Assembly: GCA_015655215.1 (NCBI GenBank)
Contig: JAATFL010000038.1
Location: 2,157-66,156, forward strand
Length of the DNA stretch: 64,000 nt
Reading direction: 5' to 3'
Source of the DNA: Coriobacteriia bacterium
GTDB lineage: Bacteria > Actinomycetota > Coriobacteriia > Coriobacteriales > RUG033
A program made the translations under genes and the position numbers. Numbering within the stretch: position 1 is the first letter of the stretch; every line of letters starts with the position of its first letter. This document shows, piece after piece, positions 23,656 to 41,794 of this stretch. A model generated the notes under the pieces. The model worked only from the letters and a program-made list of their open reading frames with translations, was not told where the DNA came from and did no database searches.

Positions 23656-23990
23656 ACGTAAACACGTGGGAATCTTACACGAGCCACATCAGGTAAACAA
23701 GTCCTATCCGCACGGCGTCCGGTCGAGCGGGGAAGGGATGAGGCAGACGCTTGCGTACCTTGGACAAGCAGATGATATGACACAAGGGCCATGATGGTGA
23801 AAGCACGACGCAATGCAGAAAGAAACCACGTTATACGTACCCAAATGAGGGGCTCTTCCCCTCGTTCCAGAGTATAATGATCGCGATGGTCCCCCTTGGG
23901 AAAAGATATGTACGTCGTTTTGGGTTTTCCCATCGACACCTCGGATGAACTTGCGCCAGTTTGTGTCGTATGGTTTTCGTGAGGAGCCCT

Positions 23991-26437: not shown

Positions 26438-26488
26438 AGTTCCCTCTTCCCAGATTATGAGCATGGATATGCGCTGATGCGCGGAATA

Positions 26489-27349
26489 CTACTTTCTATA
26501 GCTGTAGAAACCCTCACCCGTTGCAATGCCGAGCTTGCCTTCGTCGATGTAATCCGATTTGAGGACCGCGGCGAACTCCTTCGCGCCTGATACCTGGGCC
26601 ATCATGAGCACCTGGTACACGGTCTTGAGACCGATGACGTCCATGATCTCGAACGGACCACGGGGGGCACCGGTGCCGATGCGCCATATCGAGTCGATGT
26701 CCTTGGGTTCTGCATAGCCGCCAGCGTAGAGCAGGCAACCGGAGACGCACAACGGGACCAAGAGCGAGTTGAGCAGCCATCCGGCCTTCTCCTTCTTGAG
26801 CGGCACGGCGACCATGCCGGTGTCCGCGGCGAACTGCACGACCTCGGCAAACGCCGCCGGGTCCGTCTGGTCGGTACCCATGATCTCGGCGGAGTTCTGG
26901 ATCCAGATGTGGTTGGCATAATGGAGGCCGAGGAACTTCCCGGGGCGTCCGGTAAACGCGGCCATATCGCTGGGCAGAAGCGTGGAGGAGTTCGTGCACA
27001 CGATGGTCTTCTCGGGAAGGAGACCCGAGATGTCCTTATAGAACGTCTGCTTCTCCTTGAGGTCCTCGATGATCGCTTCGATCACCAGGTCGGCATCGGC
27101 GACTGCCAGTGCCCGGTCGGTCGTGTAGGTGATGTTGGCGAGCCCGCGTGCGATCTGCTCGGCGCTCGTGCCAGGGATCTCCTTCTGATAGCGCTCGGCG
27201 ATGCCAGCGATACTCTTCTTGGCACGATCGAGACTCTCCGCGCTCCTGCCGCATACGGTGACCCTGAACCCGTGCACCGCCGTCTGGAAGACGATCTGCG
27301 AGCCGAGCACCCCGTTGCCGAATACCGTCACGTTCTTCATGACCGTCAC
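26489..27349 (-). CDS. 3-hydroxyacyl-CoA dehydrogenase (Hbd-like), copy 2
   Basis: MTVMKNVTVFGNGVLGSQIVFQTAVHGFRVTVCG. A tandem paralogue of copy 1. Confidence 0.85.
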   Translation of the reverse strand: MTVMKNVTVFGNGVLGSQIVFQTAVHGFRVTVCGRSAESLDRAKKSIAGIAERYQKEIPGTSAEQIARGLANITYTTDRALAVADADLVIEAIIEDLKEKQTFYKDISGLLPEKTIVCTNSSTLLPSDMAAFTGRPGKFLGLHYANHIWIQNSAEIMGTDQTDPAAFAEVVQFAADTGMVAVPLKKEKAGWLLNSLLVPLCVSGCLLYAGGYAEPKDIDSIWRIGTGAPRGPFEIMDVIGLKTVYQVLMMAQVSGAKEFAAVLKSDYIDEGKLGIATGEGFYSYRK

Positions 27350-27430
27350 TGCCTTCCCTTGGATTTGCCCTTACACACTTACAGCCGCCACGATCCGCAT
27401 CCGACTGGATGCCCGCATGGCGGCATCTGC

Positions 27431-27730
27431 CTAACCGCATCGGTAACTGACGCCAAAGGTCCCTCGCGGATACGTCCACGTAGCCACGCCGCTGTTGCCC
27501 AACTGCCGGCATGCAAGACGGCATGTACCGCATTCGAGGCACCCAACATAATCGAACGCAAGTTTTCCATCGAGAAGCTTGTAGCACTGGGCGGGGCATA
27601 TGTAGAGGCAGGGCTTGTCACTGCACTCAAGGCAACACTCGCATTTGACTACGATATGGGCCTCGCCCTCATCCACGTTGAACTTATCGACCCCGAGCAA
27701 CTCCTCTGCACTCATCCTCTCGATGCTCAT
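27431..27730 (-). CDS. fixX: FixX-type ferredoxin with an additional N-terminal Cys motif
   Basis: MSIERMSAEELLGVDKFNVDEGEAHIVVKCECCLECSDKPCLYICPAQCYKL...FDYVGCLECGTCRLAC...YPRGTFGVSYRCG. ATG 27730 overlaps the fixC stop (ATGA). Confidence 0.8.
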   Translation of the reverse strand: MSIERMSAEELLGVDKFNVDEGEAHIVVKCECCLECSDKPCLYICPAQCYKLLDGKLAFDYVGCLECGTCRLACRQLGNSGVATWTYPRGTFGVSYRCG

Positions 27731-29046
27731 GATCCGTCCCCCTGCCGTAGAACCCGCCTGATCTTCCTGACATCCTTGAGGATTGCACCGAAACCGGTGT
27801 CCCCTTTGATACACGCCTTCAACTTTGGGTAGAGCGGTCTCCTCGAATCGGGGTCGAGGTGGTAGACCGTGGAGAAGATATCGTTTGCCAGTTTCGGGTA
27901 GATCGCAAAGATGCGGGGGTCATCCTCTATCTCGGGAAAGCGCGAGGCCATCTGCATCGCACGGTGTACTCCGAGTGCGTCGAGCTGCTCAGTGTAGACG
28001 GCACCTACATCTTCTGGGACACTGGTGGAGATGATCGCGTTGGCCGCCGCAAGGCCCGACAGGATGGCGAGGTCGATGCCCCGCACCGTGTAACCCTGGT
28101 TGACGGCAAAACCCGCCGCGTCCCCCGCCATGAGGAATCCGGTGCGGAACAGCTTCTCTGGCACAGCTTTGAGGCCGGCTTCGGGACAGAGATGCGCTGA
28201 GTACTCGATGGTGGTCCCGCCTTCGAGCAACGGTCGGATGGCCGGATGCATCTTCACATCCTGAAGCAGGTCGTGCACCGAAAGATGCTTTTGTGCAAGC
28301 ACGCTCGGGAGCAGCACGCACCCGAAGGAGATGCTCTCCCGATTGGTGTAGATGAACACGCCACCGTTGACACCCCTTGCTCCGCCAAGGGCCAGACGCG
28401 ACGCCCCCTCCCCTGCGGCGAGGGCGAAGCGGTCCTCGATGGTCCGTGCCGGCAGCGCAATCGTCTCCTTCGCCCCCACGAGCATATGCTCGACGCGAAC
28501 GTCGTCGATGAGACCGGCCTTCTGCCCCATGAGTGAGTTGGCACCGTCGGCTGCGACGACGATATCCGCAAACATCTCATCTCCGCCGGCACGCACGCCC
28601 ACGATCCCCCCGTCCCTCTCGATCAACTCATCGACGCGGATGCCACAGACGAGCATGGCACCTTTCTCCTCAGCCTGTCCGGAAAGCCACTCGTCGAACG
28701 TGGCACGCAGGACCGTATAGGACTCAGGAACCTTCCCCTCCTCGGCAAATGATGGGTCACCGTAGTCGATGCACAACGATCGTTCGCCATCGAGCATCAT
28801 CATCTGCTCATGGGTCACCTTGCGCTCGAGGGCTTCCTCCGCTTTGGCGGTAAGACCGTTATCGAGCATCTCGAGCGCGTAGGTATAGAACCTTCCACCG
28901 GTCACGTTCTTCGCCCCCGGCGTATCGGCCCTCTCTATCATCAGGACCTGCTTACCAGCCCGTGCCAGGGCATAGGCGCATGCCGCACCAGCCGGACCGG
29001 CACCGATGATGATTGCATCGAAGCGGTCGGATTCCTCCTCGTCCAC
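27727..29046 (-). CDS. fixC: FixC-type FAD-dependent oxidoreductase, copy 2
   Basis: DRFDAIIIGAGPAGAACAYALARAGKQVLMIERADTPGAKNVTGGRFY. Paralogue of 3792-5114. GTG start. Confidence 0.85.
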   Translation of the reverse strand: MDEEESDRFDAIIIGAGPAGAACAYALARAGKQVLMIERADTPGAKNVTGGRFYTYALEMLDNGLTAKAEEALERKVTHEQMMMLDGERSLCIDYGDPSFAEEGKVPESYTVLRATFDEWLSGQAEEKGAMLVCGIRVDELIERDGGIVGVRAGGDEMFADIVVAADGANSLMGQKAGLIDDVRVEHMLVGAKETIALPARTIEDRFALAAGEGASRLALGGARGVNGGVFIYTNRESISFGCVLLPSVLAQKHLSVHDLLQDVKMHPAIRPLLEGGTTIEYSAHLCPEAGLKAVPEKLFRTGFLMAGDAAGFAVNQGYTVRGIDLAILSGLAAANAIISTSVPEDVGAVYTEQLDALGVHRAMQMASRFPEIEDDPRIFAIYPKLANDIFSTVYHLDPDSRRPLYPKLKACIKGDTGFGAILKDVRKIRRVLRQGDGS

Positions 29047-29153
29047 TGCCTCTCACCTCTTCCCTGACCTTGATGGTATTCCTCATGCCGTCCGGGAGGG
29101 ACCGGCACCGTTGTGCCCAGGCCCCTCCCGACATAGAGTGCCTCACGGGGTCT

Positions 29154-30020
29154 TCAGAAGATGCGGTTTGGCTGACCGAAGATCGATGAATCGTACTTGC
29201 CCACGAGCAGCTTGGGAACGATGTCGTTTGCCTGGTCACCCATCGGAGTGAGCCCGAGGAACTTCAGGAGGCCGATGTCAAGCTTGGTCCAGCCACCGCC
29301 CAGGGACTGCACGACCGGCAAAGATGCCCACGGATCGTTGACGGAGGGCTGCAGGTTGACCTTGACGGACATCTTCTCCCAGCTCTTGTATGCCATGCGG
29401 CCGAGGACCTTGATCAGGAAGACGTTCGCGAATACGGGCGCGCCCTTCTCGTTGAACGAGGTACCGTACTTGTAGAAGTATTCGTTGCCATCGTTGACCG
29501 TACCTTCCTTGATGTCGCCGAATATCTGTGCGGCCATGGGGCTGTCGTACTCCCCGAGGTCGCACTCGACGTCGAAGACCTTGACACCCATGCGCTCGAC
29601 GCTCGCATATGCCTTATCGCCCAAGCGGCGCAGGTCGATCTTGTCGGCCGTCTTCTTGGGGATGCCCATACCCTCGCGTCCCTCGAAGACCGCGTTGTCA
29701 CCGCCCGTGAGAAGCATCTCGAACGGATACAGACCCACCTCCTTGCCGTCGGTGACGGGAGTGAGGATGGCCGACTCGAAGTACGAGGTGCAGAAGGTGG
29801 GGTCGTGCACCTCGATGACGTAGGAGGTGACGACGGGTGCGACCATCTGCAGAGGGGCCGGCAGTGCGGCCTTGAGCGCCTCGGGGTCGGTCGCCCAGGT
29901 GACGAACATGCCCTCGCAATCGTGCATCCACGAAGGATTGGCCCTCGTGCTGAGATAGTACTCGATCTCGTCCGGTGTCTTCACAAAACTGCAGTTTCCC
30001 ATGGTCCATGTTCCTTTCAT
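29154..30020 (-). CDS. acetoacetate decarboxylase (ADC) family protein
   Basis: FEGREGMGIPKK matches the ADC-family GRE-x-x-G-x-PKK catalytic-lysine region. The size (~285 aa) and beta-rich composition fit. The start is 30020 or 30002. Confidence 0.55.
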   Translation of the reverse strand: MKGTWTMGNCSFVKTPDEIEYYLSTRANPSWMHDCEGMFVTWATDPEALKAALPAPLQMVAPVVTSYVIEVHDPTFCTSYFESAILTPVTDGKEVGLYPFEMLLTGGDNAVFEGREGMGIPKKTADKIDLRRLGDKAYASVERMGVKVFDVECDLGEYDSPMAAQIFGDIKEGTVNDGNEYFYKYGTSFNEKGAPVFANVFLIKVLGRMAYKSWEKMSVKVNLQPSVNDPWASLPVVQSLGGGWTKLDIGLLKFLGLTPMGDQANDIVPKLLVGKYDSSIFGQPNRIF

Positions 30021-30111
30021 TTCGCTTTCCCGATAAGCCCGTATCGTCCACACGTGCACGTACGCTGCGCATGCGTCCCATGCTGCGCCGTACGGAAACA
30101 CCCTTGCCTCG

Positions 30112-30852
30112 CTATTGCCGCTCCTCGCGTTGCCGGCGATGCATGGCCCTCAACTCACCAACCTCGTCGCACACGTCCTGGAAGTCGCAGTTATTGCAGT
30201 CGTATGCAAGGTGTTCGAGCATCTTGTCCATCGCGACGACTGCCCGGGCCACCTTGTCACCTAATGGCTTGAAACGCCTCACCTCCTCTGCCGAGGAGGT
30301 GACCATGATCACCTCCGCCGCATCGACGTATGGCAAGACCTTGAGTGCTCGGATGAGCTCGTTGCCCAGCACATCGAGCGAGAACCCCTCGTCCAGCGCC
30401 TGTTCGCTCACCCGCCCCCACTCCCTGTTTTGCTGCGGTGCAGCGTGCAGCATGTATCCGGACAGGTCGAGCTTGAGCTTAAGCCGGTCCATCTCCGAAT
30501 AACGGGAGTAAGCGTTTCCCTCGTCGAACCCATGGCCGGAGACGAGCACGACCTTACCGAAGGGGAGCTCCTGCGCATGCGTTTCACGCAGGTCAGGACC
30601 GATAAGCCTGATACGCCCATCGACGACCCGTTGGGCAGCATCGCTCCCCACGTCGGTCCACATGAGGAACGATGTGGACTCGCTTCCTGGCGCTCCCAGC
30701 TCCATGGCCATGTCCCCTGCCAAAATGATCTGGCGTTTGACCCTGGGCCACGAAATCTGGGTGTTGTAGGCAAACGTTCGAGTGCGATCGGCAAGGTCCT
30801 CTGCGCTTACGAGCTTGAGCATCTCATCGATGTAGGTGCTGAACATGGTCAC
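30112..30852 (-). CDS. hypothetical protein resembling the N-terminal/central domain of acetyl-CoA synthase (CdhC/AcsB), truncated before the Ni-binding Cys-Gly-Cys
   Basis: ILAGDMAMELGAPGSE, VVDGRIRLIGPDLRE, REWGRVSEQALDEGF and the C-terminal YDCNNCDFQDVCDEV appear in the same order as remembered CdhC motifs (GMFVELGGPKS, KVTIIGPDLKD, WMRVSKDTAAK, YGCTLCQSFAPTNVC). This recognition is from memory and needs an HMM check. Confidence 0.5.
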   Translation of the reverse strand: MTMFSTYIDEMLKLVSAEDLADRTRTFAYNTQISWPRVKRQIILAGDMAMELGAPGSESTSFLMWTDVGSDAAQRVVDGRIRLIGPDLRETHAQELPFGKVVLVSGHGFDEGNAYSRYSEMDRLKLKLDLSGYMLHAAPQQNREWGRVSEQALDEGFSLDVLGNELIRALKVLPYVDAAEVIMVTSSAEEVRRFKPLGDKVARAVVAMDKMLEHLAYDCNNCDFQDVCDEVGELRAMHRRQREERQ

Positions 30853-30959
30853 CTTCTCTCAAGGTCCGAGTCTCCCTCGGTCTGGCCGTAGACCCTGGTC
30901 TTTGGTATAGGACACCCCGGAGACACTGTGCGCCCACACCGCTCTTGTGAAAGCCCCGG

Positions 30960-31169
30960 TTACACCGTTGCCTCAGGCGCCACCCTCGTGGCAGCCTGAG
31001 CCTGATCCCTCGCCGCATACTCGCTTGCCTTGCGCAGGGCGGCGACCTTCTTGAGGGTGGGTGTCATCCTGGCGACCATCACGTCGTCGAGGTCGAACCA
31101 GTAGATCAACCCCACGGCGATGCCCACGACGCCCAGAGCCGCCGTCACGTTCCCGAAGATGTTCTTCAT
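30960..31169 (-). CDS. small single-TM protein (69 aa), paralogue of 31197-31382
   Basis: MKNIFGNVTAALGVVGIAVGLIYWFDLDDVMVARMTPTLKK... AAGGAGG lies 7 nt upstream of the ATG. Confidence 0.55.
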   Translation of the reverse strand: MKNIFGNVTAALGVVGIAVGLIYWFDLDDVMVARMTPTLKKVAALRKASEYAARDQAQAATRVAPEATV

Positions 31170-31196
31170 CTCGCTACCTCCTTCTTGGACTCGCGC

Positions 31197-31382
31197 CTAC
31201 ATCTGCTTGGAGAGCATGGATTGCGCGACGCGCCTCTCGGTATCCTTCTTGATGTCGTCGAGCTTGAACTTGATGGGAAGTGCCGCCATCTGGAACTTGT
31301 CGTCCAAGTCGTACCGCTCGACCAGGATCGTGACCGCAAAGAGCACTCCGATGATCGAAAGCACTGACTTCAGATCCTTCAT
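31197..31382 (-). CDS. small single-TM protein (61 aa)
   Basis: MKDLKSVLSIIGVLFAVTILVERYDLDDKFQMAALPIKFK... GAGAGGGTGAG RBS. Shares the MK start, the TM helix, the DLDD motif and a downstream Pro/Lys pattern with the 69-aa neighbour. Confidence 0.55.
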   Translation of the reverse strand: MKDLKSVLSIIGVLFAVTILVERYDLDDKFQMAALPIKFKLDDIKKDTERRVAQSMLSKQM

Positions 31383-31495
31383 AGTGACTCACCCTCTCTC
31401 TCGTGTTTCGAACACCCGTCACCGACGCCCGCATCGACACGCGTCCGACCAATCCGCACCCACTCTCCCATCCCGCATGTCTCGTGGTGCAAACC

Positions 31496-32323
31496 TCATG
31501 TGAACTTGCTGGCCAGAGCTTTCCTACGAGCGAACTCACAAGCCCCGATGGCACCCATGAGCTGGGGGTCCGTGTCCAACGTGACGAGCTCGAACCCGAG
31601 CATCCGGTCCATGGCCCGTTTGAGACCCCTGTTCTTGGCGCATCCACCCGCCATCGTGACCTCGCGTTCGATACCCGCGGTCTTGAGCAGGGTGTAGCAG
31701 CGCTTCGACACCGACGCCTGTATCCCGGCTGCGATATCCGCAGGCCGCTTCTTCTGCGCCAGAAGGCTGATGACCTCGCTTTCGGCGAACACCGTGCACT
31801 GCGATGAGATCGGGGTTGGACTGTTGGACTGGAGCGCGAGTTCGCAGAACGCGGGCAGGTCCATCTCGAACGCGCGAGCCATGTTCTCGAAGTAGCGTCC
31901 CGTACCAGCTGCGCACTTGTCGTTCATGGAGAAGTGCCGAACCGAACCATCCCCGTCGACCATGATGCCCTTGATGTCCTGGCCTCCGATGTCGATGATG
32001 GTGCGCACCGCGGGGTTGGTGAGGTGGACGCCCATCGCATGGCAACTGATCTCGGAGACGTTCAGGTCGCAGGTGGGGACGTAATTGCGCCCATATCCGG
32101 TTCCCACGAGATACGCGAGCCCACCTATCGAGGAGAACGCCTCGACCTCCTCACCCGCCGTCTCGATGGCGAGCTGAGCCGTCGACTCGGGGTCCATCTT
32201 GCTGCGCACGATCGACGAGCCCAGGATCGCTCCCGTCGAATCCATGATCACGGCCTTGCCGTAGGTCGACCCCACATCACACCCGCATACCAGTTCGGTC
32301 ACCACGACCGTCTCCCTTCGCAT
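31496..32323 (-). CDS. BcrAD/BadFG-type ATPase, activator of 2-hydroxyacyl-CoA dehydratase-like enzymes (HgdC/HadI-like)
   Basis: CDVGSTYGKAV, IIDIGGQDIKG, NDKCAAGTGRYFE and SQCTVFAESEVISL motifs. The two Cys residues sit at positions typical of the bridging [4Fe-4S]. The start is uncertain (32302-32356). Confidence 0.9.
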   Translation of the reverse strand: MRRETVVVTELVCGCDVGSTYGKAVIMDSTGAILGSSIVRSKMDPESTAQLAIETAGEEVEAFSSIGGLAYLVGTGYGRNYVPTCDLNVSEISCHAMGVHLTNPAVRTIIDIGGQDIKGIMVDGDGSVRHFSMNDKCAAGTGRYFENMARAFEMDLPAFCELALQSNSPTPISSQCTVFAESEVISLLAQKKRPADIAAGIQASVSKRCYTLLKTAGIEREVTMAGGCAKNRGLKRAMDRMLGFELVTLDTDPQLMGAIGACEFARRKALASKFT

Positions 32324-32349
32324 CGGCACGATGGCCGAGAGTCCTTCTC

Positions 32350-34026
32350 CTACCACGCTTGCGAGTCGTCGAATTCGAGAAGGCTCGGATCGAGGGGGTC
32401 GGCGTGCATGACGTTGAACATGAAGTTGTTGATCTGGGTGCGCATGCCCTGGCGGCTGACGACACGCGTGTCGAAGAAGTTGTAATCACACACGCAGACG
32501 GGCACGTGATCCTTGCCCCACTCGTTGAGGAACCCGGTAAGGCTCGTATACCCGCGGCAATTGAGATGGTTCATGTCGAGGATGAAGTCGGGCTGGTACA
32601 TGTCGTTGAGCGTGTTGAGACCATCGATCCAGTTCTCCGCGGGACCACGCATGTGGCGTGCCATCGCCGCGTCGCACCAGCAGTTCGCGAGACCCTCGAG
32701 CATCGTGTCGGGCGTCGACGTGTCGATGGTGTACGCGGTGCCGAACTCCTCCATGTCGTTGACGATCTCGATTCCCCAGCACCGCTCGACCCAACCGTAG
32801 ATGCCCGCGTAATCGAAGGGGGGCGTGCTCCACATGACGGTGCGATAGCGGATGTTCTCGAAACAGGGGGTCTGTGACGCGTAGTTTCGCAACGCGAGTG
32901 CGGTGATGCGCTTGTAGAGATCGACGTCCTCCTGCGTCGAGGCCGCCAGGTGAAACGCCGGCATGTATGCGTAATAGAGTGCATCGCCGGTAAGGGGCGG
33001 GTTCAAGGCGCGGTTGAGGTCCCACAGCTGCGTCCTCATCTTCGTGAGTTCGTTCTTGCGCTCGCACACCTCCTTGAGCCTCACCCAGTTCATCTTCTTA
33101 CCGGTATGCTCTTCGAGGAAGGCGACCATGCCCTTGATGTCCTCCACGAACGTCTTTGCGCCGGGATCCCCTGGATGGAAGTTGTAGGGGACGTCGAGCC
33201 AGTAGGTGGGGATGCCCATCTCCTTGATCATCATGCTGTAACCCTCGAAGTGCGCCTCGCACGGCATGTTGGTGGCGATGAGGCAGGACGCCTTCTTGAA
33301 GTACTCGTCCACCGCGAACATCCCGGGTGTCTGCGTGGAGTACGTGCAGGTGTTGTCGGGAAGACCTTGGGCGTACATCGCGTCGAGGTACTTCTCGGGA
33401 GCATGCTGGTCGTCGAGGCCGATCACGTTAGCCGCCGCCTCGACGAGGAACACCTTGATGCCCATGGCCTGCGTGATCTCGGAGGGGATCATGTCATGGG
33501 TCATGACGGTGTGCTCGGGGTCGGTGATGATGTTCTGCAGGCCTTCGACCGCCGCCTTCGTGGTGAGGACGAGTTCGCGGTACAACGCCTCCTTCGACGC
33601 ACCGGTGCGCCCGCGAGCAAGCGTCTTGGCCAGATGGGTCGTCTTGAGCTCGTCGAGGATCCATGGATAACGGAACATGGCGTCGGTCGTCTTACCTGAC
33701 TCCACCTTGGTGAGTGACATGGAGGCGGCCCACATCTTGAGCCAGTACTTGAAATCGATCCACTGGTCATGTAGGTTCGCCTGCTTATTCTTGTCGAGCG
33801 CAGCCTTGAAGGCAGCCTGTCCCTGGGGACTCGACGCCTTGGCGGCGAACTCCCCCACCTTGCCCACGCCCTTCATCACCGTCTTGTTGATGACCGCTGC
33901 CTTCACCCTGTCATCGACCATGTACGCACTCACGGCCCCGACACCCTTCATGAGCAGAGCGTTCCTGGTCCGCTCGTCGACGAGCGCCCTCTTGAGCGTC
34001 GCCTTGGTCTCCTCTTTCATCTTCAA
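32350..34026 (-). CDS. 2-hydroxyacyl-CoA dehydratase / benzoyl-CoA reductase BcrBC-family (HGD-D) large subunit
   Basis: 558 aa. The core from about residue 150 (VMTHDMIPSEITQAMGIKVFLVE...CLIATNMPCEAHFEGYSMMIKEMGIPTYWLDVPY...) is HgdA/BcrC-like. A ~110-aa Lys/Ala-rich N-terminal extension is present. The start lies 3 nt after the upstream stop. Confidence 0.8.
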   Translation of the reverse strand: MKMKEETKATLKRALVDERTRNALLMKGVGAVSAYMVDDRVKAAVINKTVMKGVGKVGEFAAKASSPQGQAAFKAALDKNKQANLHDQWIDFKYWLKMWAASMSLTKVESGKTTDAMFRYPWILDELKTTHLAKTLARGRTGASKEALYRELVLTTKAAVEGLQNIITDPEHTVMTHDMIPSEITQAMGIKVFLVEAAANVIGLDDQHAPEKYLDAMYAQGLPDNTCTYSTQTPGMFAVDEYFKKASCLIATNMPCEAHFEGYSMMIKEMGIPTYWLDVPYNFHPGDPGAKTFVEDIKGMVAFLEEHTGKKMNWVRLKEVCERKNELTKMRTQLWDLNRALNPPLTGDALYYAYMPAFHLAASTQEDVDLYKRITALALRNYASQTPCFENIRYRTVMWSTPPFDYAGIYGWVERCWGIEIVNDMEEFGTAYTIDTSTPDTMLEGLANCWCDAAMARHMRGPAENWIDGLNTLNDMYQPDFILDMNHLNCRGYTSLTGFLNEWGKDHVPVCVCDYNFFDTRVVSRQGMRTQINNFMFNVMHADPLDPSLLEFDDSQAW

Positions 34027-34029
34027 CCT

Positions 34030-35211
34030 CTATTCCGCCCGAAGTGACAGGTCTGCGTTGAGCCTCTTCATGACGACGCTTTCGACGAACGCCTGGACAC
34101 GTGTCCTCAGTTGCCCTTCGCCACTCAGTTGGTACTCGCGCTCGAAGCGGACTGTTGGTATGCCCGCTTCCTGGCACGCCTTGTCGAGCTTGATGACCTC
34201 CCAACCCCACAGGTCACAGAACTTCATGACCTCGAGCATCACCCCGTCGACCTCGTAGGCGGCGGCCCAGTCGAGCATGTGCTCGATGCGATCGTCGAAC
34301 ATCTCGATCATGCGAGGGCAGTCGCTGTGCTCCATGAAGTGATGCGCGAGGTTGGCGTAGGGGTTGCCGTCCTCGGGGATCGGTTCGAGACCGGGCAGCG
34401 AGCCAAAGCAGTAGCGGTCCGCTACGACGATGCATCCCTGATCCTCGATGAGCTGCGTGAACGCGGGATTGTCGAACCGCGAGCCCATGACCATCACGCG
34501 TGGCACATCTTCCATGAATCCATCGCGTTTATCCAATGCCGTCTTGAGGCTTTTGAGAGGTTTGAGGAGAAGGTCGCGCGGAACAGCCTGGCAGGCGGTG
34601 AATACCGTGTGCCACTCGGTTCCGGAGATCTTGGGGTGGGCGTCGAGACGGAGGTCGGCGATCGACTTGAGCACGGCGTTGAACTCGTTGTACTCCCCGA
34701 TGGCCACGGCGACTGCCGCGTCGGACGTATCGACGCCGTAGTGCTCGGAAAGAGCCCCTCCCAATGTGCGCAGATCCTCCTCGAGCGCGTACATACCCGC
34801 CGGGAAGACCTTGCGGGGGGTGTCGATCACGTAGGAGAGGTAGTTCCGCTTCTCCCCGTTGACCCCTAGGAGCTTGAGATTGTGCTCGACGCGCTGGGTG
34901 TGAACGCAGCTTGCCGCGAACACCACCCCGTCCAGCCAATCGTAGACCCCGTCTAGGCCGGCTTGCAGGATGCAACGTGAATACGAGCAGTTGAACTGCG
35001 ACAGGTAGAAGTCGGCCAACTCGGTGCTCTGAACCTCAGGAGCCCTCAGGTGGATCGGAAACAACCTCCCCACGCTGAGCAACGGAGCGGGGACCATGCA
35101 GCAGTTGTATCCGATGGGCACCCCACCTTCCTCTATCGCCTGTTGCACGAGCGGGTTCTTCGAAGACGCGATAACGTCCTGAAAGACCTTCATCTCCTTC
35201 AACCGTTCCAT
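34030..35211 (-). CDS. 2-hydroxyacyl-CoA dehydratase / BcrBC-family (HGD-D) small subunit
   Basis: MERLKEMKVFQDVIASSKNPLVQQAIEEGGVPIGYNCCMVPAPLL...VFAASCVHTQR...VADRYCFGS...MKFCDLWGWE is HgdB/BcrB-like. ATG 35211 has an AGAGGAAGGGG RBS. The ORF-track extension to 35580 is spurious. Confidence 0.8.
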   Translation of the reverse strand: MERLKEMKVFQDVIASSKNPLVQQAIEEGGVPIGYNCCMVPAPLLSVGRLFPIHLRAPEVQSTELADFYLSQFNCSYSRCILQAGLDGVYDWLDGVVFAASCVHTQRVEHNLKLLGVNGEKRNYLSYVIDTPRKVFPAGMYALEEDLRTLGGALSEHYGVDTSDAAVAVAIGEYNEFNAVLKSIADLRLDAHPKISGTEWHTVFTACQAVPRDLLLKPLKSLKTALDKRDGFMEDVPRVMVMGSRFDNPAFTQLIEDQGCIVVADRYCFGSLPGLEPIPEDGNPYANLAHHFMEHSDCPRMIEMFDDRIEHMLDWAAAYEVDGVMLEVMKFCDLWGWEVIKLDKACQEAGIPTVRFEREYQLSGEGQLRTRVQAFVESVVMKRLNADLSLRAE

Positions 35212-35257
35212 ATGCGCACCACCCCTTCCTCTTGTACGACACCTCACGCGACACGTG

Positions 35258-36136
35258 CTACACGAGCACCCCGAACCTCTTGAGCGCCTGCGCCACCGCG
35301 ACCACCGACGGGTCCGTATCGGGTAGCTCGAGCAAGCTTCTGCCGGCGATGTCGAGTTTTCTGATGGGAGAATCCTCGATGACGCAACCCACCTGGTCGA
35401 TATCCCCCAGGTCGACCAGGTGGGCATCGGCCGGATCGACCACGCGGTTGAGCAGGACACCCACATGCTCGTAGTGCATGACCCCGCCATCGGCGACATC
35501 CCGTATCGTCCTGATGACGTTGATGCCCTTGAGACTGCAATCGGAGACGAGCAGCAGGTGCGTGACCGTCTCGAGCACACGACGGTTGACCTGCTCGATC
35601 CCGGCCTCGCCGTCGATCACGACGTAGTCGAAGCTGGCGACGAGCTCCTCGATGACCTCCTTGAGGTAATCGTTCACCTTGCAATAGCACCCTTCGGTCT
35701 CCGGGCGACCGATGGCGAGAAACGCGAAGTGCTCCCGCTCGGCCATCGCCTCGTACACTCGGTAGTCGAGTTCCTCAAGAATCGCCGCCACGTCCCCGGC
35801 CTCGCCCGTGCGACTGCTCCTGATGACGTCGTTCCTGATCTCATCGACGGTGTGCACCACGTCGACGCCCAACGCCGTGGCAAGGCCCACCGCCGGATCC
35901 GCATCGATGACGAGCACCTTCGCATCCGGACGCTCGGCGAGCAGGATCTTGGTGACCATGGCGGAGACGGAGGTCTTGCCCACGCCACCCTTGCCACATA
36001 TGGCCATGACCGTAGGTCTTGGACCGCCGGTGCCCTGGTGGGAGGCGCAACCGTGTCCGTGCCCATGCTCCTGATCCTGATCATGTTCATGGTCGTGCTC
36101 CTGGTGATGCTGATGCGCCCCACACTCCTCGCACAT
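35258..36136 (-). CDS. CooC/AcsF-like P-loop metallochaperone ATPase with Cys- and His-rich N-terminus
   Basis: MCEECGAHQHHQEHDHEHDQDQEHGHGHGCASHQ, then ICGKGGVGKTSVSAM (deviant Walker A), VIDADP, GCYCKVN (CooC CxC metal site) and IDGEAGIEQ. ATG 36136 has GGAGAGGAGGGA upstream. The alternative GTG 36166 overlaps the fixB stop. Confidence 0.75.
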   Translation of the reverse strand: MCEECGAHQHHQEHDHEHDQDQEHGHGHGCASHQGTGGPRPTVMAICGKGGVGKTSVSAMVTKILLAERPDAKVLVIDADPAVGLATALGVDVVHTVDEIRNDVIRSSRTGEAGDVAAILEELDYRVYEAMAEREHFAFLAIGRPETEGCYCKVNDYLKEVIEELVASFDYVVIDGEAGIEQVNRRVLETVTHLLLVSDCSLKGINVIRTIRDVADGGVMHYEHVGVLLNRVVDPADAHLVDLGDIDQVGCVIEDSPIRKLDIAGRSLLELPDTDPSVVAVAQALKRFGVLV

Positions 36137-36162
36137 AAGACATCCCTCCTCTCCGTGCAACG

Positions 36163-37077
36163 TCACCGTGCCGTGACGAGTGCGTCAGTAAGCAAGGGGA
36201 CCACGGCATACAGGTCACCTACGATGCCAAAATCCGCTTCCCTGAAAATGGGAGCCTTTTCATTCTTGTCGATTGCGACGATCACCTTCGCATCGCGTAC
36301 GCCCACCATGTGCTGCACTTGCCCGGAGACACCCACGGAGAGGTACAGGTCGGGTGCCACACTCACGCCGGATATGCCCACGTACTGCTCAGCGGGAACC
36401 CAGCCCCGCTCCTCGGCGATGCCGCGGGTACAGCCGATCCGTGCATCCAAAGCCGCTGCCAGACCCTCGATCAACGCCATGTCCTCACGCTTCGAGACAC
36501 CCATGCCCACAGAGACGATCCGCGGAGCGCATGACAGGTCGGCCCCCTCTTGCGAGAGCGGCTCCCTCTCCACCAGGTGGACGCGCATATCTGGTTGGAT
36601 GACAATGGTCTCAAGTGGGGAGTCCACACCCCGTACCGCCTCGAAACGCCCTGATGGTATGGTGACGACAACCGGTGTGGAGAATTCCTCCGACCGCACC
36701 ATGGCACCCCCGTACATGAGGCGTTCGGTTGAAAGCTTGCCATCCAGGAGATGCACGGCAGAAACGTCACTGGCCATCCCACACCCGAGATAACCAGCCA
36801 CACGTGCCGCTAGGTCACGACCACGCGGCGTTGCACCTACGGCGAAGAGACTCACTCCCCACTCATCGATCAAACCTGCCAGGGCCCTCGCGTTATTTTC
36901 GGGGATATCACTATCCCCATCGAGCAGAACGACCTTTGATGCGCCACATCCCACAAGCTCGGAAGCTTCCTCGGGACTGAACGTGACGATGGTGACGTCG
37001 TGCTCTTCCTCACGGGCAAAACCTACCAGCTCTGCGGCAAGCGAGGGCTTATCGCTGTAGATGAGAACTTCGTTCAT
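36163..37077 (-). CDS. fixB: electron transfer flavoprotein alpha subunit, FixB type
   Basis: 304 aa. The C-terminus EQYVGISGVSVAPDLYLSVGVSGQVQHMVGVRDAKVIVAIDKNEKAPIFREADFGIVGDLYAVVPLLTDAL parallels E. coli FixB. Confidence 0.9.
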   Translation of the reverse strand: MNEVLIYSDKPSLAAELVGFAREEEHDVTIVTFSPEEASELVGCGASKVVLLDGDSDIPENNARALAGLIDEWGVSLFAVGATPRGRDLAARVAGYLGCGMASDVSAVHLLDGKLSTERLMYGGAMVRSEEFSTPVVVTIPSGRFEAVRGVDSPLETIVIQPDMRVHLVEREPLSQEGADLSCAPRIVSVGMGVSKREDMALIEGLAAALDARIGCTRGIAEERGWVPAEQYVGISGVSVAPDLYLSVGVSGQVQHMVGVRDAKVIVAIDKNEKAPIFREADFGIVGDLYAVVPLLTDALVTAR

Positions 37078-37844
37078 GAGAGCATCCCCTCCTTCTTGAG
37101 CGCGCTCACAAGTGAGGTGACCTTATCGGACGCATCGCCGTCAACAAAGATGACATTCCTCCGGTTGGCGATGAAACCTTGCGATGAGAGAACCTTCGCT
37201 GCGGGTGCAGGGTCGCACCCGAGCTCGGCAATGCCAAGCTCATGCAGTGGCTTCTTTCCGGCGGAGAGAACCGCCTTGAGCCCAGGGATGGGGGGTTCAT
37301 AGCCAGCCGGTAACACTGCGATCACGCAAGGACGGTTCACCGTGACGGTCTCAAGGCAACCGTCGAGCTTGCGCGTCGCGGTGATTGAGTCGCCTTCCAC
37401 CTTCATCTCGATGACCGAGGTGACCGTCGGCCAATCAAGCAGGGCACCGACCCTGGGAGCTATCTGCCGTGCATAGGTATCACTCGCACCCTCGGCGCAG
37501 ATGACGAGCGATGTGCCGTCGATCGTCCGTATCGCGCTTGCGAGCACCTGACTCGTAACCAGGGCGTCAGCGTCGCACGCCGCCGCATCACCGACCCAGT
37601 ACCCCGTCGCCGGCCCACGGCTCAGTGCATCCTTGAGGGATTTGCGCACGTCTGGGGTCCCGAAGGTCAGCGTCGCCGTCGCGTCGCCCGTCTGCGCGGC
37701 GACCTGCATGGTCGCCTCGATGGCACTCTTGTCGAATTCCGAGATCTTGCCACGTGCGTGGCTCACATCGATGGACCGATCCGGGTTGATTACCAGGTCC
37801 TCTTCATCGAGAACCCATTTATAGCAGGCGACGATCGTTGCCAT
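37074..37844 (-). CDS. fixA: electron transfer flavoprotein beta subunit, FixA type
   Basis: MATIVACYKWVLDEEDLVINPDRSIDVSHARGKISEFDKSAIEA (compare E. coli FixA MKIITCYKCVPDEQDI...). GAGGAGGA RBS. 4-nt overlap with fixB. Confidence 0.9.
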   Translation of the reverse strand: MATIVACYKWVLDEEDLVINPDRSIDVSHARGKISEFDKSAIEATMQVAAQTGDATATLTFGTPDVRKSLKDALSRGPATGYWVGDAAACDADALVTSQVLASAIRTIDGTSLVICAEGASDTYARQIAPRVGALLDWPTVTSVIEMKVEGDSITATRKLDGCLETVTVNRPCVIAVLPAGYEPPIPGLKAVLSAGKKPLHELGIAELGCDPAPAAKVLSSQGFIANRRNVIFVDGDASDKVTSLVSALKKEGMLS

Positions 37845-38021
37845 CGGCCATCCTCCTCTTCTTGACGGCATCGTCCTCGACACGGGCTCCCGACCGATGG
37901 GGCCAGTCAGGTCGCACCTGCCATCTGCGACACCATATGTGTTGTCCTTCGAGACATCTCGGCCATCCAGACGTTCTCGGATCGCCGCCGGGAAAGCTCG
38001 CGTGCGCTCTCGCCGATGGAT

Positions 38022-39185
38022 TCACGCCAACGGGTACTTGCCATACCTCATCATCGTGCCGATGAAGTCCTGTAGAGCCTCGATGGAGGCGCCACCGATG
38101 GCAAGGACCTTCGCGTCACGCCAGAAGCGTTCGACTCCGGTCTCGTCGATGCAGCCGACACCGCCGTATATCTGGATGGCCTCGCGAGCGACCTCCTCGG
38201 CCACCTCGGCACCGCGGATCTTGAGCATGCGGCCCTCGCACAGCTCGAGGTTGCCGGCGTCCTTGTCGGCGAGGGTGCCGTAGACGAATGCGCGAAGTTC
38301 CTCGATCATCGTGCGCATCTTCACGAGCTTGAACTTGGTCACCTGGAAACGGTCGTACATGGGCACTCCGTGCTGGATGCGGCTCATGCTGTAGTCGAAG
38401 GCCATCTGGTAGGCGGCCTCGGCCATGCCCAACCCTACCGGACCGCAGATGAGGAACTCGTTGGTGCAGCTCACAGCCGTCGCCTGCATGCACTTTCCCT
38501 CGGGGCCCAAGAGGTGATCCTTGGGGATACGCATGTCGCTGAAGGAGATGGTCCCGGTTGCGGAGCCGTGCCATCCCAGCTTGCGCTCGTAGGAGCCGAT
38601 CGTGAGACCTGAGGTGTTCTTGTCCACGATGAACGCGCTGATGCCGTCACGGGTGATGGGGTCCACCTCGGAGGTCTTGATGAAGATGATGTAGACGTCG
38701 GCGACACCGATGTTGCTCACGAGGACCTTGTTGCCGTTGATGACGTATTCGTCCCCATCGAGCACGGCGTTGGCGGCATGCTCGACATGGTTGTCGCCTC
38801 CTTCGGGTCCAGTCGAACCACAGGCGAAGATGTACTCCCCGCTGCAGAGCTTGGTAAGGTACTTCTCCTTCTGCTCGGGAGTGCCCAGCATGTTGAGCAG
38901 ACCGCCGGCCAACTCCGCGTGCGCGCCCATGTTGACGGTGAGCACCGGAAGCGATTTGGCGATCTCCTCGTAGATGAGCGCGGCGGTGGTGAAGTCCAGA
39001 CCGAGACCGCCGTACTGCTCGGGCATGGTGATGCCGAGGAACCCCAGCTCGCCCGCTCGCTTGAACAGCTGTCCCGGGAATTCGCCCGTCTCGTCGACCT
39101 GCAGCGCAACCGGGGCGACCTCCTTCTCCACGAACTTCTTCGCCGTGTTGACCATCAGTTGGCGATCCTCATTCATGTACCACAC
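38022..39185 (-). CDS. acyl-CoA dehydrogenase
   Basis: 387 aa. MNEDRQLMVNTAKKFVEKEVAP...GITMPEQYGGLGLDF...IQIYGGVGCIDETGVERFWRDAKVLAIGGASIEAL. GTG 39185 has GGAGAGGA upstream. Confidence 0.9.
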   Translation of the reverse strand: MWYMNEDRQLMVNTAKKFVEKEVAPVALQVDETGEFPGQLFKRAGELGFLGITMPEQYGGLGLDFTTAALIYEEIAKSLPVLTVNMGAHAELAGGLLNMLGTPEQKEKYLTKLCSGEYIFACGSTGPEGGDNHVEHAANAVLDGDEYVINGNKVLVSNIGVADVYIIFIKTSEVDPITRDGISAFIVDKNTSGLTIGSYERKLGWHGSATGTISFSDMRIPKDHLLGPEGKCMQATAVSCTNEFLICGPVGLGMAEAAYQMAFDYSMSRIQHGVPMYDRFQVTKFKLVKMRTMIEELRAFVYGTLADKDAGNLELCEGRMLKIRGAEVAEEVAREAIQIYGGVGCIDETGVERFWRDAKVLAIGGASIEALQDFIGTMMRYGKYPLA

Positions 39186-39360: not shown

Positions 39361-40884
39361 CTATCCGTGCAGTTCAGAGGAGGTAGGGTGCCGGTGCCCG
39401 CCCCTCTTGGCCCATAGCGGCAGGCGCACGGTGAACACCGTCCCCGCCTGCTCGGAACTGGTGACGTCGATGGTGCCATGATGGGCCTCGACGATCGACT
39501 TGGCGATGGCGAGCCCCAATCCGAAGCCATCCTCCACGTCAGACCCCTCACCGTGCAGACGCGCCTTATCGCTGCGATAGAACCGCTCGAAGACATGAGG
39601 CAGATCGGCCGAGTCGATGACCTTGCCCGTATTGCGCACCGTGAAGACGGCGCTCCCCTGTTTCGCGACGAGCGTGATGCTCACGTCGCCCCCGGCCCCG
39701 GCGTACTTGCACGCGTTCTCCACCAGTGCCCGAAGCAGGCTCTCCAGCTGGGCCTCCTCGCCCCGCACCACCACCCCAGCGGCGATATCCTCCTCGAAGG
39801 ACACCGCCTGCTCGAAGGCGACGGCCTCGAACTGCAGCACCGTCTTCTCGGCAAGTTGGGAGAAATCGACCTGCTGGGCCTCTCTCGGAACCGGAGGAGC
39901 TTCCTCGACCTTTGCCATCGAGAGCAGGTCCTCCGTGAGGATCCGCATCCCCTGCGCCTCATCGCACGTGCTTTGCACCCACTTGCGGTGGTCAGGACTG
40001 AGACCATCTCGGTCCTTGAGCAATATCTCGCTGTTGGCGAGAATGACGGTGAGGGGCGTCTTGAGCTCATGCGATGCATCCGCTATGAACTGACGCTGAC
40101 GTTTCCACGCCTCCTCGACCGGACGAAGGGCCTGACGAGCGAGAAGGATGCTGATGAGGAGGAAAGCGGCAAGCGCACCGACGCCGATGATCAGCGACTT
40201 GAGCACGATGTTCGTAAGCGAGGAGACGATGACCGAGCGATCGGCGAAGGCGAGCGTGATGCTCCCATCGTCGCTGGCATGGCGTTCGTAATAGAGGCTG
40301 AGGTCAGCCAGCACCCCGGAGTCGGAACTGCTGGCCAGCGCCTCGCTGATGGCCGAGGCGGCGATGTCACTCGACATGGAGACGCTCGAATCGTTGGTCG
40401 CGGTGATGGTGCCGCTATCGTCGACCGTCACGCAGTAGACCGGTACGTAGGAGTTCTGATATCCCTGGGTCGCCGTCGTCGAGTTCTTGTCCACCCCGTT
40501 ATCGGCGGTCTTGCTGCCATCGGTGGTGTCGGATCCCGCGGTAAGGTCCTGGGTGGACGAGTCGTTCGACCCAATCGTGGCCGAGGATGACCCGATCCCC
40601 CCCACCGTGGGAATCGCAAAGGACTTGGGGCCGGTGCCAACCGCCTCTTCGAGGGCATGGTCGACCTCGGTGCGCAACCCCTGGTAGGTGATCGTCATCA
40701 CCACTGTGAACACGACGAGCAGCACGGCGGTCACAAGCGCCATGTTGGTGAGGATGAAACCCCGTCGCAGTTTCCTGAGCACGCCTCCGCCTTCCCGCAC
40801 GTCGAGCGGTGGGTCTTGGCGAGAACCGCCCCGGTGTGGCCATCTTACAGCGCGTGGGCCATGTTGGTCGCTCTTGTCGGCCAT
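39361..40884 (-). CDS. sensor histidine kinase
   Basis: Two TM segments flank a Ser/Thr/Asp-rich extracytoplasmic region. H-box FIADASHELKTPLT. HATPase region GLGLAIAKSIVEAHHGTIDVTS. Confidence 0.85.
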   Translation of the reverse strand: MADKSDQHGPRAVRWPHRGGSRQDPPLDVREGGGVLRKLRRGFILTNMALVTAVLLVVFTVVMTITYQGLRTEVDHALEEAVGTGPKSFAIPTVGGIGSSSATIGSNDSSTQDLTAGSDTTDGSKTADNGVDKNSTTATQGYQNSYVPVYCVTVDDSGTITATNDSSVSMSSDIAASAISEALASSSDSGVLADLSLYYERHASDDGSITLAFADRSVIVSSLTNIVLKSLIIGVGALAAFLLISILLARQALRPVEEAWKRQRQFIADASHELKTPLTVILANSEILLKDRDGLSPDHRKWVQSTCDEAQGMRILTEDLLSMAKVEEAPPVPREAQQVDFSQLAEKTVLQFEAVAFEQAVSFEEDIAAGVVVRGEEAQLESLLRALVENACKYAGAGGDVSITLVAKQGSAVFTVRNTGKVIDSADLPHVFERFYRSDKARLHGEGSDVEDGFGLGLAIAKSIVEAHHGTIDVTSSEQAGTVFTVRLPLWAKRGGHRHPTSSELHG

Positions 40885-40890
40885 GGGAAC

Positions 40891-41571: not shown

Positions 41572-41794
41572 GATAGCCTCCGTCTTCGCGTCGCCATGCA
41601 TCGTCGCCACGCATGTCTCATACCCGTCGCACACCCACGCTTGCGTGCGAGGATGATACCCGACGAGCCTGAAGCTAACCTGAAAAACCCTCACACTCAC
41701 TCCACAACCACCGAGCCCGTCAGGGAGCAGCCATCTTTCAGGGCCTTTTCAGGTTACATCCCTAGGATACGTTCGGCGACACTTCTTCGCCACG

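Follow-up and report, generated by a model that had tools for sequence, protein, structure and literature searches.

Our study examined 64,000 nucleotides of the genome of a Coriobacteriia bacterium (GenBank assembly GCA_015655215.1, contig JAATFL010000038.1, positions 2,157 to 66,156 of the forward strand). This whole stretch is referred to as the window, and coordinates are counted from its first letter. The list of open reading frames revealed a single minus-strand gene run spanning 25589-39185, and within it a cassette of seven genes, all on the minus strand. In the direction of transcription these encode a CooC-type P-loop ATPase (35258-36136, 292 aa from ATG), a small, BzdN-like catalytic-core subunit (34030-35211, 393 aa), a large, BzdO-like catalytic-core subunit (32350-34026, 558 aa from TTG or 556 aa from the ATG at 34020), an HgdC/BcrAD-type activase (31496-32323), two micro-proteins (31197-31382, 61 aa, and 30960-31169, 69 aa) and a CdhC-like protein of 244 aa (30112-30846) that resembles the A2 domain of acetyl-CoA synthase (ACS) and is called the ACS-A2-like, or A2-like, protein below. 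The catalytic core of this cassette is of a known kind, and its obligatory pair of CooC-type and ACS-A2-type proteins, together with the micro-proteins, are the new features.

All seven genes were found where the initial annotation had placed them, with the intergenic gaps of 3-113 nt that it had given, two start codons excepted. Start codons were refined from public gene calls on an identical contig (L001) and from homologues. The CooC-like gene starts at ATG 36136 ('MCEEC...', 292 aa), where GTG 36166 would give 302 aa, and the CdhC-like gene starts at ATG 30846 ('MFSTY', 244 aa), where GTG 30852 would give 246 aa. Strong Shine-Dalgarno sites had been described for the block as a whole, and Shine-Dalgarno-like sequences were seen upstream of the three genes inspected. 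No terminator-like site was found between the genes on the coding (minus) strand, and a scan for promoters and terminators gave no excess over chance expectation. The GC content is ~61 %, which, together with the membrane regulators of the LuxR type, suggests an organism resembling Eggerthellaceae.

The co-location of the cassette parts is not a matter of chance. Scanning one genome per species for the CdhC-like gene yielded 64 loci, the neighbours of which were called by tblastn with the window proteins. In 62 of these 64 species genomes a CooC-like gene lay no more than 4.3 kb from the CdhC-like gene (median gap 26 bp). Of the loci, 58 had an activase and 55 the small HGD-D subunit. The complete set of four component types (CdhC-like, CooC-like, both HGD-D subunits and activase) was seen in 51 of the 64, and most of the failures were on short contigs. 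The reverse look-up, starting from the ATPase, placed all eight CooC-like homologues whose loci were retrieved (P0176, P0180, P0188, P0195, P0226, P0276, P0280 and P0281) in a cassette or beside a CdhC-like gene, and these look-ups included Desulfosporosinus fructosivorans and Tepidibacter sp. Z1-5. The recurrent synteny of CdhC-like, CooC-like and HGD-D genes that the initial annotation had looked to is strong and extends over several phyla. Carriers include Smithella, Syntrophaceae, Desulfosudis oleivorans, Desulfobacteraceae and the isolate Desulfoluna limicola, and further carriers were found among Myxococcota, Actinomycetota, Lachnospiraceae (labels of metagenome-assembled genomes), Syntrophomonadaceae and Dethiobacteria. 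The CdhC-like family itself, searched with a profile built from 21 members, comprises 260 clusters (50 % identity, E < 1e-30) among 1.84 billion representatives, all of ~240 aa.

A single accessory pair was found in loci with two or three different HGD-D enzyme sets, as would be expected of an accessory function. The only orphan CdhC-like gene, 41 % identical and with its Cys motif intact, was found in L010 (10001-19585) between a PilZ-GerE regulator and recC/recB/recD. In L079 (8260-16533) the CdhC-like/CooC-like pair heads an operon that continues with an ABC ATPase, an enoyl-CoA hydratase, an acetyl-CoA hydrolase/transferase, a fusion of 3-hydroxyacyl-CoA dehydrogenase and enoyl-CoA hydratase (3HCDH-ECH) and a thiolase, and that lies behind a sigma-54 two-component system. 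Here the pair may play a separate, CoA-linked role. No description of the cassette was found in full-text searches or in the relevant reviews, in agreement with the initial annotation, which knew of no characterised system with such a pairing, and no NCBIfam model claims the cassette proteins. Two published loci were considered and rejected. The steroid 21-dehydroxylation cluster of Eggerthellaceae (Elen_2451-2454) includes the tungstate-inhibited oxidoreductase Elen_2453, which we take to be a molybdenum enzyme. Haft's SAO selenoprotein locus, found beside double-cubane proteins, contains neither a CooC nor a CdhC component and bears no relation to the cassette.

Both core subunits belong to the HGD-D family (PF06050), with E 2e-72 for the 393-aa subunit and E 1e-45 for residues 179-536 of the 558-aa subunit. 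The best PDB match of the small subunit was BzdN (8S02_B, E 1.9e-27), followed by HadC and then by the double-cubane cluster protein (DCCP), and that of the large subunit was BzdO (8S02_A, E 3.7e-6). The [8Fe-9S] cluster of BzdN is bound by Cys36/73/100/263/293/327 and the [4Fe-4S]-OH2 cluster of BzdO by Cys95/128/380 (PMC11971306). HMMER aligned Cys37/75/102/268/298/332 of the window's small subunit with the six BzdN ligands. These residues are 96-100 % conserved in orthologues, and the full six-Cys set was present in 84 of the 88 S-type subunits near an accessory pair, both in the clade of the window and in a more distant one. The large subunit has exactly three universally conserved cysteines, 227, 256 and 490 (100 % in 32 orthologues), of which Cys227 and Cys256 align with BzdO Cys95 and Cys128/129, and Cys490 corresponds to Cys380 by position only. 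In BzdO, Glu65 and His131 form the catalytic acid/base pair. A histidine three residues past Cys256 (CEAH) has the spacing of C128-x2-H131 in BzdO and is less than 60 % conserved in orthologues, and the region of Glu65 falls outside the alignment. In the large subunit the N-terminal ~120 residues show poor conservation, and the shortest orthologues lack them.

When compared with the NCBIfam equivalog cutoffs, the core scored far too low for any characterised enzyme. The top match of the 393-aa subunit, double_cubane (NF040772), gave 111 bits against a cutoff of 350; bzdN and bzdO gave 91 and 32 bits against 454 and 449, and HadB and HadC gave 40 and 106 bits against 750 and 700. Judged from its sequence, the core is therefore a separate HGD-D clade that has the predicted cofactor layout of an ATP-driven two-electron reductase and is no orthologue of a characterised enzyme. 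It is a BzdNO-type heterodimer with a predicted six-Cys [8Fe-9S] site and a predicted three-Cys [4Fe-4S] site. The activase matched PF01869 (BcrAD_BadFG, E 1e-52) and exceeded the cutoff of TIGR00241 (207 against 125 bits), and its Cys105 and Cys148 are conserved in orthologues. It is encoded by a single gene and presumably forms a homodimer. The 2-hydroxyacyl-CoA dehydratases (HADs) have lost the [8Fe-9S] cluster, which in BzdN serves for the accumulation of at least two electrons (PMC11971306). The six-Cys site of the window core points to a low-potential reductase, of the kind represented by class I benzoyl-CoA reductase and DCCP, rather than to an HgdAB-type dehydratase, whose reaction is redox-neutral. 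Of the HgdAB/BcrBC-like iron-sulphur (Fe-S) module that had been proposed for this locus, the HGD-D pair and its activase were confirmed, and the likeness proved to be to BzdNO, with six cysteines, rather than to a dehydratase.

The nearest characterised system is the class I benzoyl-CoA reductase (BCR) BzdNOPQ of Aromatoleum sp. CIB (8S02; PMC11971306), which has the same two HGD-D subunits, a six-Cys N-like and a three-Cys O-like one, and an ATPase of the ASKHA type as electron injector. However, BzdNOPQ has the heterodimeric activase BzdPQ where the window has one activase gene, and the large subunit of the window is ~110 residues longer than BzdO. To our knowledge, BCR operons carry no CooC-like, ACS-A2-like or micro-protein genes. 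DCCP is a homodimer of one subunit type, whereas in the window a second subunit with three cysteines would make the core heterodimeric. A CoA-transferase is a known member of HAD operons, and neither this enzyme nor a CoA ligase was found in the window operon or its flanks. The window otherwise shares with DCCP and its reductase DCCP-R from Carboxydothermus hydrogenoformans (6ENO, 7YYL) the same six-Cys [8Fe-9S] site and a single-gene ATP-dependent reductase, homodimeric in DCCP-R and presumably so here. With the HADs (HgdAB/HgdC, HadBC/HadI; 3O3M) it shares the protein family and the type of activase, but the HAD beta subunits are without a double cubane (PMC11971306). These hold a [4Fe-5S] cluster on three cysteines, whereas the small subunit of the window keeps its six cysteines.

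The CdhC-like protein was described in the initial annotation as an acetyl-CoA-synthase fragment. A significant match to PF03598 (E 1.1e-10; 42 bits, where the gathering score is 24) bears this out, with the qualification that the fragment is the A2 domain only (ACS ~332-486) and not the nickel-bearing piece. The family profile aligned to residues 332-486 of Moorella thermoacetica ACS with E 1e-12, and phmmer with the single sequence gave E 7e-6. The AlphaFold2 model (pLDDT 87) matched ACS in Foldseek with E 3e-12 and an rmsd of 2.3 Å over ~176 columns, and all 23 significant PDB matches were ACS/CdhC chains. Scores against the ACS/CdhC models of NCBIfam were 34-42 bits, far below the cutoffs of 356-809. 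ACS and the window protein have the A2 domain in common, but the A3 domain, with its four cysteines for the [4Fe-4S] cluster and its Cys-Gly-Cys for the two nickel atoms, belongs to ACS only: no A3 domain, A-cluster ligands or Cys-Gly-Cys were found in the ACS-A2-like protein, which therefore cannot hold an A cluster. Its only three cysteines all lie in an invariant D-C-x2-C-x5-C motif, the last of them 18 residues from the C terminus. The spacing suggests that this motif may be homologous to the Cys506/509/518 region of ACS. When the C-terminal Cys segment alone was compared with the PDB, the best match, a ferredoxin-type motif in a chain of F420-dependent formate dehydrogenase, was not significant (E 0.43).

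The middle domain of ACS binds acetyl-CoA, and the adenine of CoA stacks on Trp405. The stretch best conserved between ACS and the family (GQRNINWLRVS against PQxNREWxRVS) contains this stacking tryptophan, which is W145 in the window protein and is invariant in the main family. This conservation suggests that binding of CoA or acyl-CoA has been retained. At the position of ACS His386 the A2-like family has Lys or Arg. From sequence and model together, the protein is the predicted CoA-binding middle (A2) domain of ACS followed by an invariant DCxxCx5C tail.

For the ATPase, the nearest solved structure by sequence was CooC1 (3KJE; E 1.8e-12, 51 bits), compared with at most 35 bits for ArsA, McdA and MinD. 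Its Walker A motif (GKGGVGKT) and its CxC motif (EGCYCKV) align with those of CooC1, are at least 95 % conserved in 64 orthologues and are invariant in 29 close homologues. No CooC- or AcsF-specific model of Pfam or NCBIfam matched the protein. The AlphaFold2 model (pLDDT 84, tail disordered) fell into the MinD/NifH/CooC fold class with CooC1 at rank 6, and in the fold search MinD, FlhG, BchL and NifH scored the same as CooC1, such that the fold does not separate CooC from MinD or NifH. The designation as a CooC-type chaperone is thus backed by the Walker A and CxC motifs and by the best sequence match, but not by a CooC-subfamily model. The His-rich tail that had also been reported is present in the window, where the N-terminal tail (MCEECGAHQHHQEH...) holds 10 His and 3 Cys in 43 residues, but the motif MCE[DN]C..H with its His-rich stretch is confined to one actinobacterial clade, the close relatives of the window. 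Presumably this tail resembles the N-terminal high-affinity nickel site of HypB, a likeness that serves as a lead only.

The window ATPase has in common with CooC1 and AcsF the deviant Walker A and the metal-binding CxC motif, which in those proteins lies at the dimer interface, and the protein with which it is regularly paired is a homologue of part of ACS, AcsF's client. In contrast to CooC1 and AcsF, its partner is an A2 domain with three cysteines and without the A-cluster domain, and its genomic partner is a BCR-type enzyme. No gene for carbon monoxide dehydrogenase (CODH) or full-length ACS turned up in those parts of the window and of the examined loci that were annotated. In two loci (L065, 11898-13340, and L042, 12358-13275) the frame upstream of the CooC-like gene has a sequence like a cobalamin-binding domain (GDPHDLGK motif), which may represent a separate B12-binding protein gene abutting the ATPase.

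The two micro-proteins had been described as tiny single-helix transmembrane paralogues. This description held, as they have one hydrophobic helix each and show a weak paralogy (28 % identity, pairwise E 4e-4). In micro-protein 1 the helix (Kyte-Doolittle maximum, KD(17), 2.36) is followed by an acidic D-L-D-D motif, and micro-protein 2 has a hydrophobic helix and an 'IYWFDLDD' motif. A conserved Y-W-F-D-L-D-D motif is shared by both and by their orthologues, and orthologues of micro-protein 1 occupy the same position in L074, L075 and L077.

Two architectures of the cassette were distinguished. Type A, represented by the window, L003, L006/L073, L074-L078 and L068, has the order CooC-like gene, small subunit, large subunit, activase, one or two micro-proteins and CdhC-like gene. 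The (I)YWFDLDD(K) motif of the micro-proteins was found in type-A cassettes of Actinomycetota, Bacillota and Thermodesulfobacteriota; the divergent L076 and L078 keep the helix only. Type A is often joined to EtfBA, FixCX and acyl-CoA dehydrogenase (ACAD) genes together with a gene for zinc-dependent alcohol dehydrogenase (Zn-ADH) or an acetoacetate-decarboxylase (ADC)-like gene, as in the window, L003, L074, L075 and L077. In the gut-Firmicutes versions of type A (L068 and L078), Etf/Fix genes are replaced by a flavoprotein resembling old yellow enzyme (OYE) and dienoyl-CoA reductase. This protein has 700-750 aa and combines OYE and pyridine-nucleotide-disulfide-oxidoreductase parts, of the BaiCD/BaiH or 2,4-dienoyl-CoA-reductase type. 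The L078 version is common, being indexed in 31 blocks of the contig collection, 23 contigs of which were read. Type B, found in most Desulfobacterota, has the CdhC-like and CooC-like genes directly adjacent, flanked on either side by an HGD-D enzyme set, with paired activase genes in one of the two sets. Its neighbours are ACADs, ferredoxins, flavodoxins and glucose-methanol-choline (GMC) oxidoreductases, and the micro-proteins are absent. Overall, the neighbouring families vary by lineage, between Zn-ADH/ADC/3-hydroxyacyl-CoA dehydrogenase (HACD), short-chain dehydrogenase/reductase with a protein like 3-beta-hydroxysteroid dehydrogenase, the OYE/dienoyl-CoA-reductase-like flavoprotein, and GMC oxidoreductase/ACAD.

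In the window, all four genes for EtfB (37074-37844), EtfA (36163-37077), FixC (27727-29046) and FixX (27431-27730) are present on the minus strand, separated by the cassette. EtfB and EtfA were recognised as a PF01012/PF00766 pair on the identical public contig. FixC, an ETF-oxidoreductase flavoprotein (NF007542, E 5e-107, 358 bits against a curated cutoff of 610), and FixX, a ferredoxin-like protein (NF011993, E 1e-23, 83 bits against a curated cutoff of 166), both scored under their cutoffs and are assigned as family members only. The insertion of the block between fixAB and fixCX, as initially annotated, is true of the window and is one gene order among several. The proposed link to the Fix chain held in so far as EtfAB/FixCX/ACAD genes lie beside the cassette in at least five independent loci, but all of these are type A, and the Desulfobacterota versions are without Etf/Fix genes. 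FixABCX/CaiA-type systems serve ETF-linked enoyl-CoA reduction and Fix-type ferredoxin generation, and here too EtfB, EtfA, FixC, FixX and ACAD flank the cassette. In contrast to those systems, the role of the set here, whether in electron supply to the activase or in product reduction, is one that we only infer.

The remaining genes of the run lie on either side. Upstream of EtfB, an ACAD-family protein of 377 aa (38022-39155, minus strand) has the Acyl-CoA_dh N, M and C domains. Downstream of the cassette follow an ADC-family protein of 282 aa (29154-30002, minus strand; PF06314, E 5.6e-34), a gene that also follows the cassette in L077, and, at the end of the operon, two tandem paralogues of the 3-hydroxyacyl-CoA-dehydrogenase family (25589-27349, minus strand). 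These paralogues are 65 % identical by pairwise BLASTP, and their putative family was assigned by reading the sequence. The family also includes enzymes with activity on free 3-hydroxy acids. The HACD-like paralogues and the ADC-like gene could form a branch from a 3-hydroxy acid through a 3-keto acid to a ketone.

Divergent from the operon is a membrane protein of 513 aa of the LuxR/GerE regulator type (23961-25502, plus strand), with many hydrophobic segments and a C-terminal helix-turn-helix, which is probably the regulator of the operon and likely its substrate sensor. In L003 and L077, too, the cassette is flanked by a GerE-domain protein, with sizes of 530-570 aa. Directly upstream of the ACAD gene, across a gap of 205 nt, are genes for a sensor kinase (HisKA/HATPase, 507 aa) and a response regulator of the OmpR type (39361-41700, minus strand). 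The flanks consist of housekeeping genes (seryl-tRNA synthetase, PdxS, a peptidase and a major-facilitator-superfamily transporter). At 20375-22898 a MocR-type GntR-aminotransferase regulator is divergent from PdxS (SOR_SNZ), an ordinary pyridoxal-phosphate regulatory pair unrelated to the cassette.

Taken together, the cassette is read here, tentatively and with a confidence somewhat short of even, as an ATP-driven two-electron reductase of a CoA thioester that is accompanied by an AcsF/ACS-like pair, the ATPase of which would load a metal or cluster onto the three-Cys (Cys3) site of the A2-like protein. In this scheme the activase would take an electron from reduced ferredoxin or flavodoxin, probably supplied via EtfAB/FixCX, and would spend ATP to push it into the [8Fe-9S] double cubane; the continuous low-potential electron demand of such a core fits the attached EtfAB/FixCX genes. 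Electrons would then pass to the [4Fe-4S] cluster, which would reduce the substrate, most likely an acyl- or aroyl-CoA, and the ACAD, hydroxyacyl-CoA-dehydrogenase-like and ADC-like proteins would process the product downstream. AcsF, a CooC paralogue, inserts nickel into ACS. Since the CooC-type ATPase is nearly always found beside an ACS-derived domain, it and the A2-like protein would most simply be the descendants of an AcsF/CooC-ACS chaperone-client pair. A dimer of the ATPase, with its CxC site, would place a metal ion or cluster on the Cys3 site at the expense of ATP, and in this actinobacterial lineage the HypB-like CxxC/His-rich tail may feed that site. Nickel is the leading candidate, favoured by the Cys/His-rich tail and by the CooC ancestry. 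Once loaded, the CoA-binding A2-like protein would serve the reductase as an auxiliary subunit, in substrate delivery or in electron entry, and the micro-proteins would tether or organise the complex at the membrane.

Several observations weigh against this reading. The Cys/His-rich tail is absent from 60+ other orthologues of the ATPase, and a NikR-type regulator was found beside only one of 77 loci. This lone gene (L072, 18971-19387, minus strand) lies 2 kb from a cassette with five HGD-D and four activase genes. In L059 and L079 the CdhC-like/CooC-like pair has no HGD-D gene within 9-10 kb. A divergent gut-Firmicutes subfamily of the A2-like protein (L068 and L078) is without the CoA-stacking Trp and keeps the Cys motif. 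The A2-like protein has no A-cluster nickel ligands, and its three cysteines would not suffice for a classical site without help from a partner or from the invariant Asp218. The lack of a CoA ligase or transferase in the operon and its flanks means that a CoA-ester substrate is itself inferred. BzdNO assembled both its [8Fe-9S] and its [4Fe-4S] cluster in Escherichia coli without special factors (PMC11971306), so that the core has no obvious need of a helper. Two further findings favour Fe-S over nickel. One metagenomic representative (P0028, 308 aa) is an A2-like protein, with its Cys motif intact, fused to a C-terminal 2x[4Fe-4S] ferredoxin domain, and distant A2-like relatives have a fourth cysteine in the arrangement C-x4-C-x2-C-x5-C. 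Nickel in the system, as proposed in the initial annotation, was thus not borne out, given NikR in a single locus of the 77 and a ferredoxin fusion that points to Fe-S redox chemistry.

These last findings lend weight to an account of the pair with no nickel at all, which we consider possible but doubtful. Here the D-C-x2-C-x5-C motif, with Asp218 or a ligand from a partner, would hold a [4Fe-4S] cluster of very low potential, the A2-like protein would be an electron-entry adaptor from ferredoxin or FixABCX to the activase and double cubane, and the ATPase would insert or repair the cluster as Mrp/Nbp35 do. Such Fe-S chemistry is favoured by the ferredoxin fusion, by the four-Cys relatives and by the lack of a general link to nickel genes. 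It is also consistent with the ferredoxin and flavodoxin genes common in type-B loci, and with the ACS segment that follows A2, which opens with the cysteines binding the [4Fe-4S] part of the A cluster and appears to have a similar spacing. However, the fusion was seen in 1 of the ~150 representatives listed, the Cys motif is set among Asp/Glu, which is not the usual ferredoxin context, and its ferredoxin-type match was the non-significant one noted above. The CxC motif and best sequence match of the ATPase are of the CooC type, whose characterised members handle nickel, and the Cys/His-rich tail of this lineage is typical of nickel/zinc chaperones. It is unlikely that both proteins act only transiently, in pure maturation, to build or repair the [8Fe-9S] cluster or the open-site [4Fe-4S] cluster of the neighbouring reductases. 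Such a role would suit the full six-Cys signature of the 84 of 88 S-type subunits beside the pair, in two divergent clades, as well as the single pair that serves several enzyme sets per locus, and CooC and AcsF are established maturation factors. Nevertheless, BzdNO formed its double cubane in E. coli with no such factors present, which speaks against a plain maturase of the double cubane, and a role in maturation alone leaves the conserved CoA-binding surface of the A2-like protein and the membrane micro-proteins with nothing to do. DCCP, too, is reported to have acquired its double cubane in E. coli unaided, and we know of no characterised BCR system described with CooC-like or A2-like genes, both of which weigh against maturation as the sole function.

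The fold search also raised the question of whether the ATPase is itself a second electron pump, in which a CooC-like dimer with an Fe-S cluster bridged on its CxC motif, like the nitrogenase Fe protein, would dock on the A2-like protein. BchL, the Fe protein of methylthio-alkane reductase and NifH ranked as high as CooC1 (E 1e-10 to 1e-11), several orthologues gave weak Fer4_NifH matches in Pfam, and on our reading of the sequence the CxC loop (GRPETEGCYC) presumably lies at the position of the NifH cluster ligand Cys97. Against this, the activase is already the dedicated ATP-driven injector of the cassette, no second cysteine equivalent to NifH Cys132 is present, and no NifH-like protein comes as close in sequence as CooC1 does, with E values of only 1e-3 to 1e-5 for BchL and CfbC in NCBIfam. 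We regard a second pump as very unlikely. That the A2-like gene is a coincidental neighbour or a decaying ACS fragment without function in the operon is hardly credible: its match covers only part of ACS and falls far under the ACS equivalog cutoffs, but 260 clusters at 50 % identity (E < 1e-30), invariant residues, a confident fold and synteny in 62 of 64 genomes from several phyla all speak against decay.

Beyond the AcsF/ACS-like pair with a loaded Cys3 site that we favour, the pair may go further and form a minimal ACS-derived nickel (or Ni-Fe-S) thiolate site beside the bound CoA, matured by its own CooC-type ATPase, in a hybrid enzyme that would combine organometallic or thioester chemistry at this site with a Birch-type [8Fe-9S]/[4Fe-4S] reductase. 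We consider this distinctly unlikely, but the absence of a CoA-activating enzyme from the operon keeps alive the idea that the pair itself performs CoA-linked chemistry. If true, the hybrid might make or break the CoA thioester of the substrate, or a C-C or C-S bond, without a CoA ligase or transferase, and would represent a new class of nickel enzyme outside CODH/ACS, with carriers among the Actinomycetota and Bacillota of the gut and among Desulfobacterota associated with hydrocarbons.

In summary, BCR, HAD and DCCP enzymes carry out some of the most reducing reactions known in biology and are considered self-sufficient Fe-S systems, for which a core and an activase are enough. An accompanying metallochaperone and a recycled CoA-binding domain imply either one more metallocentre or subunit or else a specific assembly pathway for which nobody has so far searched, and would mean that the AcsF/ACS chaperone-client pair has been re-used outside C1 metabolism. 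Smithella, Desulfosudis oleivorans and Syntrophaceae are lineages known for syntrophic and hydrocarbon-degrading metabolism. The substrate may matter for anaerobic degradation and for the conversion of xenobiotics or host metabolites in the gut, a question that can be put to a direct test in three cultured carriers, Desulfoluna limicola, Desulfosporosinus fructosivorans and Tepidibacter sp. Z1-5.

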